A DNA stretch of 64,000 nucleotides from Candidatus Woesebacteria bacterium (GTDB lineage: Bacteria > Patescibacteriota > Microgenomatia > UBA8517), in the NCBI GenBank assembly GCA_013374835.1, contig CP055307.1, positions 146,622-210,621 on the forward strand. The letters run 5' to 3'. Both the position numbers and the translations under genes were made by a program. This document shows positions 4,493 to 32,429 of this stretch, piece by piece. Position 1 is the first letter of the stretch, and every line of letters starts with the position of its first letter. The notes beneath the pieces are model-generated. The model had not been told where the DNA came from. It worked only from the letters and a program-made list of their open reading frames with translations, and did not search any database.

Positions 4493-5176
4493 CTATTTTT
4501 CGATTTCAGGCAAAACAGTTAAAGGATTAATGTTTTTCCCATCTTTTCTTAACTCGAAATGTAAATGGTCGCCAAAAGCCCTTCCTGTTGCGCCAATTTC
4601 ACCAATCTTTGTACCCATTTCTACCCGTTGGTCTCTTTCAACCTCAATTCTAGATAAATGAGCATAAAGGCTTACCAAGCCGTTTCCGTGAGAAATTAAC
4701 ACGGCATTTCCGTAAGCAAATCTTGAATATTGAATCTCAAGCACCTCGCCCCTCATTATCGAAAATATGGGGTCTCCGGTTTTTCCGTCGAAGTCAATAG
4801 CTTGGTGAAAAAAGTGATACCCTTGGCTTATTACAACACTCTCTACGGGAAAAATTAAACCTCTTTGTGTCTCAAAATTTATCTTATCTTCAACAGTAAC
4901 AATGCTGTTTTGAGTTTCAGCCACAGCAATGCCGGATGCTGGAAAAACAGAGCTTGCCATTGCAAACAATGCAAGATTGGTCCCCAAAATACTCCTCGTT
5001 CTTTTGTGCTCAAAGATATGCCTGAAAAACCGGCTTATTTTATTCCCACGTCGAACTCTCCGAATCTTGGAAAAAGATGGAATAATTGGTTCGGTCAAAC
5101 TCTCCCCCCTACGCCGTTTCACTAAACATAGATCCAGGCGATATCTCGGGGACAGGTTAATGGATAGCTTATTCAT
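4493..5176 (-). CDS. M23 family metallopeptidase (LytM/lysostaphin-like peptidoglycan endopeptidase).
   Basis: HxxxD and HxH motifs are present (FHQAIDFDG...GDHLHFELR). Confidence 0.85.
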   Translation of the reverse strand: MNKLSINLSPRYRLDLCLVKRRRGESLTEPIIPSFSKIRRVRRGNKISRFFRHIFEHKRTRSILGTNLALFAMASSVFPASGIAVAETQNSIVTVEDKINFETQRGLIFPVESVVISQGYHFFHQAIDFDGKTGDPIFSIMRGEVLEIQYSRFAYGNAVLISHGNGLVSLYAHLSRIEVERDQRVEMGTKIGEIGATGRAFGDHLHFELRKDGKNINPLTVLPEIEK

Positions 5177-5220: not shown

Positions 5221-5252
5221 AACAAAAAAATCTCGCTTAATTTAAGCGAGAG
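5221..5252 (-). terminator. Rho-independent terminator acting on the minus strand.
   Basis: A 10-bp perfect stem, TCTCGCTTAA/TTAAGCGAGA, at 5231-5251 with a T-run on the minus strand at 5221-5230. It lies just outside the IS left end. Confidence 0.55.
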
Positions 5253-5282
5253 AACATATTATATCCTAATTGTCAAAAACTT

Positions 5283-6245
5283 TCAATTTTTTGTACAGGA
5301 TCGTAACATATTCGACATACCTCCTTCCTGGATGAGATAGTCTGTTGGTGTCATATTACCTAGGGATTCATGTACTCTCTGGCAGTTGTAGTATATCAGG
5401 TACTTTGCAAGACGTTGATTGTAAGCTTTCTGGTTGTAGATAAGGTGGAGGTTGGGGTCAATAAAATCTTCCTGGATGGTCCTGTTGAAGCGCTCTACCA
5501 CCCCCTGGATCTTGGACATTCTGGGGTATATAAAAATGTGTTTGATGTTTTGTTTTTCTAGGTAAACCCTGAATTGTTTGAGAAACTCTTTACCATTGTC
5601 AGTCTGGACTGTGTGGATTTTGTAGGGAATAAGTGTTTGGAATTTCTTGAAGAAGTCCACAGTGTTAACTGAATTTAAGTGTTTGTAGGTCAGGGAAAGG
5701 GCAGACTTTCCCTTCACATCAATTGCCTGGTACATATACCACCTAATGCCATCAATGATTTTCTCCACAGTATCAGCTTGGATGTATCCCAGAGTTTCTG
5801 GTTTGGGTGCATATTTAATTCTGTTCTTCTTGCTCTTAGTCTTGTTTTGAGCCCATTTAGAGGCTGGATTGTGGTATACTCTGCCTGTTTTGTAATAAAA
5901 TAGATTGTTTCTTGAGATAATCCTCCCAATGGTAGCCTCTGATACTGTTAGGAGATTATTTTCTCTGCAGTATGCATCAAGTAAGGGTTTAAGCTTCTTC
6001 TTGCTCATTCTGGGGACAAACTCTCTTTGGGATTTAATATAATCAACAATTTTAGGATCCACTACTGACCTTCTTACCCCCCTTGGAGCTGTGGAGTCTG
6101 GAACTAACCCCTGGATACTCTTTCTCTCTAGTACTCTTTTCTTCCAGGTGAAGATAAGCTTGCGATCTACTCCAAAGGCCTCTTTTGTGGCAACCTCTCC
6201 ATGTTTGGCATAATACTTAATTATTCTTAGTCTTTCCTGGGCCAC
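5283..6245 (-). CDS. IS481-family DDE transposase (integrase core / rve domain).
   Basis: 320 aa with an N-terminal HTH. The DDE core shows YIQADTV...QTDNGKEF...VERFNRTI..., the pattern of retroviral-integrase-like IS481/IS3 transposases. The stop codon lies 9 nt beyond IRL. Confidence 0.85.
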   Translation of the reverse strand: MAQERLRIIKYYAKHGEVATKEAFGVDRKLIFTWKKRVLERKSIQGLVPDSTAPRGVRRSVVDPKIVDYIKSQREFVPRMSKKKLKPLLDAYCRENNLLTVSEATIGRIISRNNLFYYKTGRVYHNPASKWAQNKTKSKKNRIKYAPKPETLGYIQADTVEKIIDGIRWYMYQAIDVKGKSALSLTYKHLNSVNTVDFFKKFQTLIPYKIHTVQTDNGKEFLKQFRVYLEKQNIKHIFIYPRMSKIQGVVERFNRTIQEDFIDPNLHLIYNQKAYNQRLAKYLIYYNCQRVHESLGNMTPTDYLIQEGGMSNMLRSCTKN

Positions 6246-6395
6246 CTCACTTTGATCAAATCTTCTCAGTGGGAAATCAAGTTCATCACCTCCTTGGAAT
6301 TCTTGATTTTACCCATTACAAACTCAGATTTCATGCTTACCCCAGTGGATCTTGCCATGCTTACTCAATGTCGAATATGTATCTGATCCTGTGCA
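5292..6395 (-). mobile_element. IS481-family insertion sequence, about 1.1 kb, with imperfect terminal inverted repeats and one DDE transposase.
   Basis: IRL 5292-5318 is TGTACAGGATCGTAACATATTCGACAT. IRR 6368-6395 has reverse complement TGCACAGGATCAGATACATATTCGACAT. Both begin with TG, as is typical of IS481. Flanking T-runs could be the target-site duplication. GC is elevated relative to the surroundings. Confidence 0.8.
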
Positions 6396-6431
6396 TTTTT
6401 TGCTAATATTAATTAAGGGGGTGATTAAATT

Positions 6432-6608
6432 ATGAAAAAAAAGGACTGGAGACTTTTGTCGCAAGTTTTAATTGGGGCATCACTAATAGCAGTAATTCTA
6501 TCGGCAATGGGCTTTATGGGTTCTGATATATGGCTTGCATCAACACAATGGTTGCTTGTCGCGGCCGTCATGGCTTTATTTGGTATCTATAGCCGTCTAA
6601 ATTCATAA
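6432..6608 (+). CDS. Small hypothetical membrane protein (58 aa, two TM helices). It is not in the ORF track because it is shorter than 60 aa.
   Basis: ATG at 6432 sits behind a very strong SD (AAGGGGGTGAT). The hydrophobic sequence reads MKKKDWRLLSQVLIGASLIAVILSAMGF... Confidence 0.4.
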   Translation: MKKKDWRLLSQVLIGASLIAVILSAMGFMGSDIWLASTQWLLVAAVMALFGIYSRLNS

Positions 6609-6631: not shown

Positions 6632-6754
6632 ATGCGGAAAAAAAATTATTCAGTTCAAAAATGTCCTGTTTGTGGGTTTGAAATTGGCTCGGTGGCCGGC
6701 TCAAAAGACGCAATTTGCACCAATTGCGGTTTCAAAGACTCCTGTTGTGATTAA
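6632..6754 (+). CDS. Putative 40-aa zinc-ribbon protein (CPVCG...CTNCG).
   Basis: MRKKNYSVQKCPVCGFEIGSVAGSKDAICTNCGFKDSCCD carries two CxxC pairs. It is short, so confidence is low. Confidence 0.3.
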   Translation: MRKKNYSVQKCPVCGFEIGSVAGSKDAICTNCGFKDSCCD

Positions 6755-19653: not shown

Positions 19654-21827
19654 GGTCCATTTTCACCTTCTTTTTTTTCAATAAAAGAGTTTGGGCTGCA
19701 GTGTTTGGTTGGTTTGTTCTCTTGCAAAAACCATTCTGAAATAGTAGGACATCCGGTACACGGCAAAGTCCCTAGAGTTTTGCATATCTCAAGCCGCACA
19801 AGTCCGTTTGGCACCCTCCATTCCACACTTTCCCTGCCAGAGAGTAGATGAATCATAATCTTATTCCATATCGGCGAAGCGCCTGTTACGCCTGAAGCAA
19901 TACTGCTCATTGGAGAGTTGTCGTTATTTCCAACCCAGGTAGCCACAAGGTAGTCTTGATTAAATCCGACAGTAAGATTATCTCTCAAATTATTACTGGT
20001 TCCGGTTTTTACAGCCACTTCGGGATGATTTGGTATTACAAGCATGCTGTTTATCCCAAAAGCAGGAGCTCTTGCAGAGTTATCTCGTAAAATATCAATA
20101 AGCATAAATGCAACTCTTTCGTCAAGCACTCTAATAAAACCGCATTTCTCCTCCGAGCCCTCCTTTGCGCTAACTTCTGCAAGAAATTGTTTGCAACCCT
20201 TAGAATATATGATTTTCCCCTCGGCATCGTATATTTTCTCTATGGAGCTTAAACTTGGACGCATTCCATAATTTGCAACCGTTGCGTAAGCAGTCGCAAG
20301 TTCGATAATTCGCACATCACCACCACCCAAAGTTAAAGATAATCCATAGTCCGATGCATCCTTCCAAGTTGAAATTCCCATTTTTTTTCCCAGCTCCACC
20401 ATTTTATCAACGCCGTATGAAGCAAGCGTTCTTACGGCAGGTACATTTCTTGACTCAGCAAAAGCACTTCTTAAACTAATATTCCCCCTAAATTTTCCGT
20501 CATAATTTTTAGGGGAATAAGGTTCAGTCCCTGCAACACGGAAAGTTATTGGTGAATCCTTTAGCAAAGAAGCGGGAGTATATCCATTTTCAAGAGCATA
20601 GGCATAATTTATAAGTTTTATCGAACTGCCTGGTTGCCTAAGCCTCAAAAGTACGTTTACGTTTCCATCCATTTCTGTATCAAAGTAATCCTTAGATCCG
20701 ACCATCGCCAAAATGTCACCATTTTTGGGATTAAGAACAATAGCAGCCCCATTTGATACATTTAAGTGTCGTATCGACTCTACTTCATTTTTTACTATTT
20801 CCTCCACCCTTTTTTGGAGCTTATAGTCAAGCGTTGTTACGATTTTAAGTCCGCCCTTAAGAACCATCGATTCGCCATATTTGTTAACCAGTTGATCTTT
20901 TACATACATAACAAAATGAGGTGCTTTTATCTCGGTTTTGTTTTTTGAAAATACAAGTTTTTCCTTTTTAGCCTTTTCTGCCTCCTCAAAAGTAATAAAT
21001 TCGTTCGAAACCATAAGATCAATCACTTCGTTTTGCCTTTGAATCGAAAGCTCGGGATTATTTCCAAAAGGGGAAAGCAGCGTTGGGCTTTTGGGCAATC
21101 CTGCCAAAAGCGCTGCCTCTGAAAGCGTAAGCTCGGAAACGTCCTTATCAAAATAAACTCTTGACGCTTCTTTAATCCCGTAAATACTACCTCCGTATGG
21201 AACCTCGTTTAGATACATTTCCAAAATTTCATCTTTTGAATATTTTCTCTCGACATCTATTGCAAGCAAAATCTCTCGCGCCTTTCTTTTTAAGGTTTTC
21301 TCTGGTGTAAGCAAGGCGTTCTTTACAAGCTGCTGTGTAATAGTCGAGCCGCCAGTAACTTTTCCTTCGTCTAAAAAAATACCCAAAGCACGGGTTATGC
21401 CCTTTATAGAAAAACCATGGTGTGAATAAAAATTAGCGTCCTCAGCAGCAAGAGTTGCAAGTTTTACGTTAAGCGGTATTTCAGTTAGCTTTACCCTGCT
21501 TCTGTTTTTGTCTTTATATATTTGATATAAAAGCACGCCGTTTCTATCGTAAATTTTGGTCGAGAGTTCAACATCCCTTTGTATAAGATCCTCGGCCCTA
21601 GGAAGATTGTGAAACAAAAAAGCCCACAGACCAAAAAAAACAAATACCAAAGTAAAATACAAAAAAGTTATCAAAAAAAGCAGTCTTTGAATGCCGCAAG
21701 ACAAGATTGTCCTCGGTAAAATAAAAAATGCCGAAAAAATTTTTCGCAACAGTAACAAAGCCAAATAAATTGTTTTATAAACAGGTTTTCCAATAAAGAC
21801 GAGGATGTATGCTGGTTTTGAAACCAT
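19641..21827 (-). CDS. Class A penicillin-binding protein (PBP1A family; GT51 transglycosylase + transpeptidase).
   Basis: GT51 region ATLAAEDANFYSHHGF; transpeptidase motifs SSIKLINYAYALE (SxxK), SRN and KTGT. Confidence 0.92.
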   Translation of the reverse strand: MVSKPAYILVFIGKPVYKTIYLALLLLRKIFSAFFILPRTILSCGIQRLLFLITFLYFTLVFVFFGLWAFLFHNLPRAEDLIQRDVELSTKIYDRNGVLLYQIYKDKNRSRVKLTEIPLNVKLATLAAEDANFYSHHGFSIKGITRALGIFLDEGKVTGGSTITQQLVKNALLTPEKTLKRKAREILLAIDVERKYSKDEILEMYLNEVPYGGSIYGIKEASRVYFDKDVSELTLSEAALLAGLPKSPTLLSPFGNNPELSIQRQNEVIDLMVSNEFITFEEAEKAKKEKLVFSKNKTEIKAPHFVMYVKDQLVNKYGESMVLKGGLKIVTTLDYKLQKRVEEIVKNEVESIRHLNVSNGAAIVLNPKNGDILAMVGSKDYFDTEMDGNVNVLLRLRQPGSSIKLINYAYALENGYTPASLLKDSPITFRVAGTEPYSPKNYDGKFRGNISLRSAFAESRNVPAVRTLASYGVDKMVELGKKMGISTWKDASDYGLSLTLGGGDVRIIELATAYATVANYGMRPSLSSIEKIYDAEGKIIYSKGCKQFLAEVSAKEGSEEKCGFIRVLDERVAFMLIDILRDNSARAPAFGINSMLVIPNHPEVAVKTGTSNNLRDNLTVGFNQDYLVATWVGNNDNSPMSSIASGVTGASPIWNKIMIHLLSGRESVEWRVPNGLVRLEICKTLGTLPCTGCPTISEWFLQENKPTKHCSPNSFIEKKEGENGPQIL

Positions 21828-32310: not shown

Positions 32311-32383
32311 GGATGCGTAGCTCAGTGGTTAGAGCACCGATCTTATAAGTCGGGGGTCGATGGTTCAAATCCATCCGCATCCA
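32311..32383 (+). tRNA. tRNA-Ile with anticodon UAU (TAT).
   Basis: Manual fold: acceptor GGATGCG/CGCATCC, D-arm GCTC-AGTGGTTA-GAGC, anticodon stem CCGAT/GTCGG with loop CTTATAA (U33, anticodon TAT, A37), T-arm GATGG-TTCAAAT-CCATC, discriminator A. Confidence 0.8.
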
Positions 32384-32429
32384 CCCTATAAGCCTCGGAA
32401 TTGAAAGAACATGCTAGCTTGATTATATA

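Follow-up and report, generated by a model that had tools for sequence, protein, structure and literature searches.

The DNA analyzed in this work (the window) is a stretch of 64,000 nt from Candidatus Woesebacteria bacterium (GenBank assembly GCA_013374835.1, contig CP055307.1, positions 146,622 to 210,621 of the forward strand). Near its left end, it carries an insertion sequence (IS) whose transposase gene runs from right to left. One copy of a 5-bp target duplication separates the element from a promoter-like site that faces an M23 peptidase gene, and a gene for a small membrane protein begins beyond the other end (Table 1). From the data described below, we are confident in regarding the IS as one copy of an IS481-like element with a length of 1105 bp. 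The clade to which it belongs lands in one orientation, with the duplication abutting the upstream edge of a -35 hexamer, and borrows the stop codon of its transposase gene from the target; the copy in the window is frameshifted.

Table 1. Features at the locus, with coordinates in the window (IRL and IRR, the transposase-proximal and transposase-distal inverted repeats; ORF, open reading frame)
Feature	Position	Strand	Basis or remark
Insertion sequence, 1104 bp (1105 bp in undamaged copies)	5292..6395	minus (transposase right to left)	copies in other contexts and the empty site
IRL, TGCACAGGATCAGATACATATTCGACAT as reverse complement	6368..6395	minus	"right" repeat of the original prediction
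IRR, ...ATGTCGAATATGTTACGATCCTGTACA	5292..5318	minus	"left" repeat of the original prediction
Target-site duplication, copy 1, TTTTT on the plus strand	5287..5291		empty-site comparison (L005)
Target-site duplication, copy 2, five of the six T at 6396-6401	6396..6400		empty-site comparison (L005)
Conserved start TTG (M of M-I-S-H-L-R-R-F), then premature stop, TTG ATT TCC CAC TGA	6266..6280	minus	family alignment and L001, L002, L011
Shine-Dalgarno sequence AAGGAGG of the transposase gene	6289..6295	minus
Promoter-like site inside the element, ATGAAA-17-TAAAAT, 9/12	6306..6334	minus	consensus scan only
Remainder of the transposase ORF, 320 aa	5283..6245	minus	GTG start without a good ribosome-binding site
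Transposase stop TGA supplied by the target	5283..5285	minus	bases 2-4 of the host -35 hexamer
Host promoter TTGAAA-17-TATAAT, 11/12	5258..5286	minus	5 bp from the IS end, fires toward the M23 peptidase gene
Host hairpin, 9-bp stem and 3-nt loop, followed by T7	5224..5251	minus	also in the empty site; not part of the IS
M23 peptidase gene behind the targeted promoter	4493..5176	minus

The boundaries given in the original prediction (about 5292-6395) were confirmed by an empty site and by three other insertion contexts, which diverge exactly outside TG(C/T)ACAGG...CCTGTACA. The terminal inverted repeats of 27/28 bp are imperfect, as had been predicted, and consist of an 11-nt and a 13-nt common block with a 1-nt indel between them. 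Their tips (TGCACAGG... and ...CCTGTACA) are of the TG(T)...ACA type found in the IS481 family. The IRR, which reads TGTACAGGATCGTAACATATTCGACAT on the plus strand at 5292-5318, also codes for the final residues of the transposase, MSNMLRSCT. The T-runs on both sides of the element had been regarded as a possible target duplication, and comparison with the empty site proved this correct. In the empty site (L005, SRR5506739) the sequence is ctttcaa-TTTTTT-gttaat, with 6 T, and in the occupied sites it is ctttcaa-TTTTT-IS-TTTTTT-g, with 5 T before and 6 T after the element; the duplication is therefore the 5-bp TTTTT. A 6-bp duplication was rejected, as ...GTACA keeps its terminal A in all contexts. 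Duplications of 5 bp were also found elsewhere in the clade, namely TTGAG (L020), CGACC (the L021/L023 pair), AAATA (L035), and AAAAC (L045).

At the IRR junction of the window copy, the sequence reads ...GTACA / AAAAA / TTGAAA / 17 nt / TATAAT, and this is the best promoter-like site of the region. The empty site L005 has it in unaltered form, which identifies the promoter as host DNA. Outward -35 elements are common among insertion sequences, and the -35 and -10 motifs could be read as a mobile, outward-facing promoter of the element itself. We consider this practically untenable, as the empty site holds the entire promoter, and each site has its own spacer and downstream genes. The original prediction had also placed the transposase stop 9 nt outside the repeat. 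This holds, with the stop codon occupying nucleotides 7-9 outside the element, and its position is explained by the TGA of the -35 box.

The same arrangement was observed at most of 16 DNA junctions of the clade, where 5 bp separate the element from a -35-like hexamer downstream, and the element end next to the hexamer is the same each time (Table 2). These comprised the first 13 unique IRR-side junctions and three that protein tails had predicted; for the former, 259,000 randomly drawn positions of the same sequences gave the background. Positions +6 to +11 matched TTGACA in at least 5/6 bases in seven of the 13 junctions (background 0.6%; P = 6e-13), and a -10 hexamer (at least 5/6 of TATAAT, 16-18 nt spacer) was found in eight of them (background 2.8%; P = 4e-10). 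At the mirror position outside IRL, such hexamers occurred in 0/18 junctions. The layout recurs in relatives sharing only 50-70% identity, and the five duplicated bases themselves show no consensus. In seven loci (L017, L020, L021, L022, L023, L025, and L027), the -10 hexamer is followed after 6-9 nt by an ATG with which an ORF starts. We observed that these ORFs have no Shine-Dalgarno sequence and begin 40-43 nt beyond the IS end. This suggests that such sites are promoters of leaderless genes in Microgenomates-type genomes. One contig (L030, 2395-2440) has a TTGACA immediately next to the tip of IRL and not 5 bp away from IRR, which is either an exception or chance.

Table 2. Sequence outside IRR in elements of the clade and, from L036 on, in ISKpn28-type elements
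Locus	Five bases	-35 hexamer	Spacer (nt)	-10 hexamer	Remark
L020	TTGAG	TTGACA	17	CAAAAT
L022	TCAAA	TTGACA	17	AATAAT
L023	CGACC	TTGACA	16	TATTAT
L024	ATCAC	TTGACA	17	TATAAT
L025	AAAAA	TTGACT	17	TACTAT
L017	AAATA	TTAACA	16	TATATT
L027	AGTAC	TTGAAC	16	TAATCT
L013		TTTTTT	17	TATAAT	weak -35
L021		TGGAGA		TATAAT	weak -35 (4/6); perfect -10 in register
L002		TTCTTT	17	TAAAAT	weak -35
L034	GAAAG	TTGACG	17	TATAAT	tail ES; left flank not available
L035	AAATA	TTGACA	17	TATAAT	tail KY; AAATA also on the other side
L045	AAAAC	TTGTGA	17	TAATAT	tail KTC...; AAAAC also on the other side
L036	GGGGC	TTTACA	17	TATCCG	duplication matching
L037	AGTTC	TTGAAA	17	TATCAT	left end cut by IS26
L038	TCTCC	TTGCCT	17	TACTCT	duplication matching
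L039, L040	TCTCC	TTGCCT	17	TATCCT	duplication matching
L041	AAACT	TTGACC	18	TACAAT	duplication matching
L042	TCCAC	TTTTCT	17	TAAACC	weak -35; duplication matching
L043	CAGCA	AACGCA			exception to the pattern
L044	CCTCC	TTGCAA	17	CATACT	duplication 4/5

The rule can also be read from the proteins. If it holds, the transposase ORF, having no stop of its own, must read ACA-NNN-NNT-TGA and would close on the TGA of TTGACA, which leaves two residues after the last IS-coded Thr, the second of them from an NNT codon. This Thr is present in 122 of the 123 relatives. In 11 of them the ORF ends at it, and these are presumably, for the most part, cases of a contig stopping at the element tip. Exactly two tail residues were found in 74 of the 112 tailed proteins (background 4.6%; P = 1e-70), and the second one was never K, E, Q, M, or W, as the NNT codon requires. 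In 17 longer tails, the third residue is Cys or Trp (TGY/TGG), which corresponds to a TTG hexamer without the A. Overall, the third codon is TGN in 81% (background 4.9%; P = 1e-97). For prediction, three distant members were chosen by their tails alone, and their DNA was then retrieved; all three (L034, L035, and L045) fit the rule at the DNA level.

IS481 itself has been reported to target NCTAGN. Among the elements outside the clade, we analyzed nine loci (L036-L044) of ISKpn28-type elements from plasmids of Klebsiella, E. coli, Salmonella, Serratia, and Enterobacter, which share the pattern in most contexts sampled. In these copies, a 5-bp duplication is followed by a TTG-type hexamer and a -10 hexamer at 17-18 nt, and the ORF runs out through IRR, as in the element studied here. 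Four of the loci (L038, L039, L040, and L044) represent one orthologous site next to hok in diverged plasmid backbones. It is an even question, in our estimation, whether a whole IS481 branch (the clade from the Candidate Phyla Radiation (CPR) together with the ISKpn28 group) targets promoters in this oriented way, with the duplication against the -35 hexamer, and has abandoned its own stop codon as the target always supplies a TGA.

We propose that the elements of the clade would integrate in a single orientation, with the transposase gene directed into the promoter and the duplication placed immediately upstream of a -35 hexamer of the sigma-70 type. Neither the core promoter nor the gene downstream would be disrupted, and such a position would be a low-cost landing site in a gene-dense genome. 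Judging from the kinship with IS3, the movement proceeds most likely by copy-out/paste-in. The target might be recognized in two ways: the transposase may read the TTGNNN hexamer directly, or it may recognize promoter DNA to which RNA polymerase is bound or which the polymerase has bent. Direct reading would fit the inner core of both repeats, ACATATT(C/A)GACAT, in which a TTNGACA similar to TTGACA is found. In this respect, the element resembles IS911 of the IS3 family, a related DDE (aspartate-aspartate-glutamate) element, which in the absence of OrfA inserts beside sequences similar to its own inverted repeats. The analogy is incomplete, as the motif lies 21 nt from the tip in the repeat and 6 nt in the target. 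The sites that combine a poor -35 with a well-placed -10 hexamer lean toward recognition of polymerase-bound DNA.

A different explanation is that insertion is nearly random and only the copies just upstream of promoters persist in an almost all-coding genome. CPR genomes are gene-dense, all the observed sites are survivors in assembled genomes, and the lack of consensus in the duplicated bases would also be expected. Selection of this kind explains an intergenic location, but not a fixed 5-bp register to the -35 hexamer, the single orientation (no such hexamer on the IRL side), or the loss of the stop codon across a clade spanning about 50% identity. Survivorship as the only cause is thus, in our opinion, very unlikely. 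The fixed register, the single orientation, and the lost internal stop point to a target choice made by the transposition machinery itself.

Several observations weigh against promoter-directed insertion as we describe it. Five of the 16 junctions (L001, L002, L003, L013, and L016) have neither TTG nor a TTGACA-like hexamer at +6, and selection against intragenic insertions must contribute to the distribution. Only one empty site was recovered, and all other promoters are putative, being consensus matches. Under colistin selection, an ISKpn28 insertion at +91 within mgrB has been reported (PMC6101004), which means that a genuine promoter is not strictly required. A target duplication is missing from several metagenome contigs. 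These are probably chimeras across copies, as the L021/L023 pair suggests from its flanks, and where some contigs are chimeric a missing duplication in a metagenome contig is uninformative. In that pair, the left flank of one copy is joined to the right flank of another, with CGACC as the duplication. Short-read assemblies were also observed to end exactly at the element tips (L004, L006-L011, and L029-L033). Two further points, the profile score of the transposase and the possible origin of its frameshift in assembly, are taken up below.

The 320-aa ORF, correctly predicted to be a DDE transposase, contains the Pfam domains rve_3, rve, and HTH_32. Its catalytic residues D158 (5772-5774), D216 (5598-5600), and E251 (5493-5495) are spaced 58/35 and lie within the motifs QAD, TDNGKEF, and VERFNRT; in full-length numbering they are D196, D254, and E289, invariant across the 123 relatives. 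Such an rve/integrase core with D..D(35)E spacing and an N-terminal helix-turn-helix (HTH) is typical of the IS481 family, and so is the single unbroken frame of the undamaged copies L011 and L016. The IS481 transposase profile of NCBIfam, NF033577, was the top match of the ORF (profile positions 2-283 of 284), at 151.8 bits, which is below the curated cut-off of 224 bits and counts against a plain family assignment. The same profile was the top IS family for 123/123 relatives (best E = 1.3e-56), with IS3 second; in the case of the window ORF, the IS3 profile NF033516 reached 63 bits and remained below its own cut-off of 160 bits. The best annotated tblastn matches in a plasmid collection were IS481-family/ISKpn28 transposases with 34-37% identity. 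The element and the IS481/ISKpn28 elements have in common a transposase with a single HTH and a DDE (rve) domain, a length of about 1.1 kb, TG..CA ends, 27-28-bp repeats, and a short duplication. In the IS481 family, the duplication is 2-15 bp, mostly 6 bp (PMC10045372); that of the element falls within this range and differs, at 5 bp, from most members. The CPR/Patescibacteria host and the score below the NCBI cut-off also set it apart. It is reasonable to treat the element, on its sequence features, as an IS481-like insertion sequence of Candidatus Woesebacteria that forms an outlying clade, since its score is below the NCBI cut-off. The family name of the original prediction is retained with this qualification.

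A protein search for relatives gave 782 homologues at E <= 0.001, and genome and metagenome collections were additionally scanned for the repeat pattern. The few homologues with a named source and the genome records with the repeat pattern come from Woesebacteria, Microgenomates, or Patescibacteria. No match to the repeat pattern was found among viral contigs, and a phage vector was accordingly rejected. The statement that insertion sequences are scarce in CPR-like genomes is inapplicable to this family, considering the number of homologues and the three gene calls of the cluster (P0124, P0126, and P0127) on a single 901,682-nt NCBI contig. One of the three is the window ORF, and the contig is apparently the source chromosome. 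Within the window, a degraded second copy was not found; the sole candidate, a 21-nt match at 19834-19854, lies inside a gene for a 728-aa PBP1-type protein and was dismissed as chance.

The original prediction described the element as intact. This is correct for the ends and the catalytic core, but the conserved reading frame is broken at codon 4/5 by one missing T between 6270 and 6269 (TTTCCCA-CTGAG instead of TTTCCCATCTGAG). Copies that are otherwise base-identical have 1105 bp (L001, L011, L016, and L029-L033), and one of them, L011, occupies the same locus in Candidatus Woesebacteria UBA1430 and has the T. About half of the gene calls in the family start at M-(I/V/L)-S-(H/S)-L-R-R-F. The longer calls run upstream through a conserved 'KEV', encoded by AAGGAGGTG, which is a Shine-Dalgarno sequence; the N-terminal extension of the 356-365-aa calls was thus rejected as protein and is more likely a promoter and Shine-Dalgarno region. 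The real start is most likely the TTG at 6280-6278, as indicated by the family alignment and the spacing to the Shine-Dalgarno sequence. With this start and the missing T, the frame in the window stops at codon 5. The 320-aa ORF begins at codon 13 of the natural frame and retains everything spanned by the IS481 profile. Re-initiation may occur after the five-codon ORF. Judged by its reading frame, the window copy probably makes little or no transposase and relies on other copies in the genome.

The other two gene products on the source contig are relevant here. One of them has 356 aa and is uninterrupted to the last IS-coded residue; the other has 320 aa and is shortened near its C-terminus, as another one-base deletion would give (AATCAACG changed to AATAACG). 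The products on this contig thus fit two single-base deletions at different places with zero amino-acid substitutions. Such a pattern could reflect leftover assembly errors in a repeat or, equally, real inactivation. The error-like spectrum, the T in the UBA1430 copy at the same locus, and the difficulty of polishing repeats all speak for a fully functional window copy in which the T was lost in assembly or polishing, and a one-base deletion in a repeat could have this origin, which is a point against our description of the copy as frameshifted. On the other hand, 11.5 kb of unique flank is 100% identical, with zero indels, to the independent short-read contigs L004 and L007, neither deletion lies within a homopolymer, and inactivated IS copies are common. 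We regard the assembly error as a serious possibility, albeit a somewhat doubtful one. In contrast, an IS3-family element in which two frames are joined by programmed -1 frameshifting is extremely unlikely. IS3 is the second-best profile and the two frames in the window do differ by -1. However, this mechanism was rejected, as the otherwise identical copies L011 and L016 have one unbroken frame, the slippery heptamer is absent at the site, the upstream frame would have only 4-30 codons, and the IS481 profile scores 152 bits as compared with 63 for IS3.

The original prediction had also proposed a recent acquisition on the basis of the GC content of the element, said to be clearly above that of its flanks. 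This basis did not stand. The element has 40.7% GC, and the mean of same-size parts of the window is 38.2% (standard deviation 2.2%), which places it at the 88th percentile; the left 3 kb flank has 39.4%. As the difference is within the normal variation between such parts, GC was rejected as a sign of recent arrival. Recency itself is supported by other data. Using the neighbouring 58-aa protein and the M23 peptidase, we found the locus in other assemblies. Contigs of SRR6186653 match the window flanks with 100% identity and end at both tips of the element. In UBA1430 (GCA_002329465.1), the insertion point and the orientation of the element are the same; between the window and UBA1430 lineages the flanks are 94.5-94.9% identical, and the elements are identical except for the missing T. 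Within the UBA1430 lineage, the flanks of the occupied and empty alleles are 99.7-99.97% identical. Copies with at least 99.8% identity are present at no fewer than five other sites. These sequence comparisons, i.e., an empty site in a near-identical strain, near-identical copies at other sites, and an identical element across diverged lineages, support a recent insertion.

Counted from the element ends, the first single-nucleotide polymorphisms (SNPs) between the flanks of the two lineages occur at 8 and 38 nt. This leaves no recombination tract, and transfer of the element between the lineages by homologous recombination was rejected. An alternative to two insertions is a single insertion ancestral to both lineages, homogenized by gene conversion, with the empty site arising by precise excision. 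One locus with the identical base and orientation in both lineages would fit it well, and the three gene calls on the source contig offer possible templates for conversion. It would need end-to-end conversion, leaving 0 differences in 1104 nt in both lineages with SNPs starting so close to the ends, in addition to a precise loss. Repeat hits on a near-consensus promoter with an A-tract are plausible under the target rule, and 'KN' tails (AAA AAT TGA) recur among other relatives. Hence, we find the ancestral insertion rather unlikely. With the target rule, the occupation of one and the same promoter in two lineages, the flanks of which differ by about 5%, is simply explained.

With respect to the neighbouring sequences, a strong minus-strand terminator had been predicted at 5221-5252. 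A hairpin followed by T7 is indeed present on this strand (-11.4 kcal/mol, z = -4.3), and it sits at the predicted transcript start; the more informative neighbour of the element is the promoter between the two. In the window (5224-5263, minus strand) and in L005 (5909-5941), we observed a near-consensus promoter followed directly by a perfect 9-10-bp palindrome and T7. The palindrome, which predates the insertion, could be a leader attenuator, a 5' stabilizing hairpin, or a repressor operator for the M23 peptidase gene. No convincing -35/-10 pair was visible by eye across the abutted element ends. Of the small genes with strong Shine-Dalgarno sites predicted beyond the other end of the element, the 58-aa membrane protein gene starting at 6432 was found as described. 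It is followed by a 40-aa ORF at 6632-6754 with two CxxC pairs, resembling a zinc-ribbon mini-protein. Elsewhere in the window, ARAGORN detected a tRNA-Ile with the anticodon TAT (32311-32385). This anticodon is unusual in bacteria, in which AUA is normally read by a modified CAT tRNA.

Some features of the proposed target choice have counterparts in known systems. In IS870 of Agrobacterium, the stop codon of the transposase is generated by the CTAG target, so that there too the ORF is closed by a stop supplied from outside; IS870 differs in family and target and has no link to promoters. The yeast elements Ty3, Ty1, and Tf1, with integrases of the rve superfamily, insert at fixed positions by promoters through the transcription machinery or bound factors and find a safe haven in compact genomes. 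They are eukaryotic long terminal repeat elements with RNA intermediates, and a role of polymerase or sigma factor in the present case is hypothetical. The closest bacterial parallel is found in the IS1202 family, distantly related to IS481 and IS3: its ISAba32 subgroup targets XerCD sites, and a safe haven was also proposed there (bioRxiv 10.1101/2022.12.17.520857). The insertion of these elements, too, is always in one orientation, and its distance to the specific site always equals the 5-6-bp duplication (bioRxiv 10.1101/2022.12.17.520857). In ISAba32, however, IRL abuts the xrs/dif site, whereas here IRR abuts the -35 hexamer. The flanks of the present elements are -35/-10 promoters and not xrs sites, and their transposases of 332-356 aa are smaller than those of the IS1202 family (54 kDa in IS1202). 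This argues against membership in that family.

Beyond ISAba32 and xrs, no report of promoter- or -35-directed insertion by IS481 or other bacterial insertion sequences, and nothing relevant on the target specificity of IS481, was found in the literature, the coverage of which was incomplete and did not include ISfinder. As a new IS481-like element alone, the element is ordinary. Its promoter-locked, oriented insertion with a borrowed stop is statistically well supported, with confirmed predictions, and appears to be undescribed.

A precise, oriented target choice is known for few DDE insertion sequences, and how it is achieved is under active study. Insertion in a fixed register with the -35 box would add a novel type of landing site, at which both the gene and its core promoter are spared, and the rule accounts for the open-ended transposase gene. 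It also has practical consequences: gene callers place the start as well as the end of these transposase genes wrongly, and each copy interrupts short-read assemblies. As ISKpn28 in Klebsiella and E. coli seems to obey the same rule, it can be tested in the laboratory. If a promoter-targeting branch of IS481 exists, it would be a bacterial counterpart of Ty3/Tf1 targeting and would explain how insertion sequences persist in the streamlined genomes of CPR bacteria.

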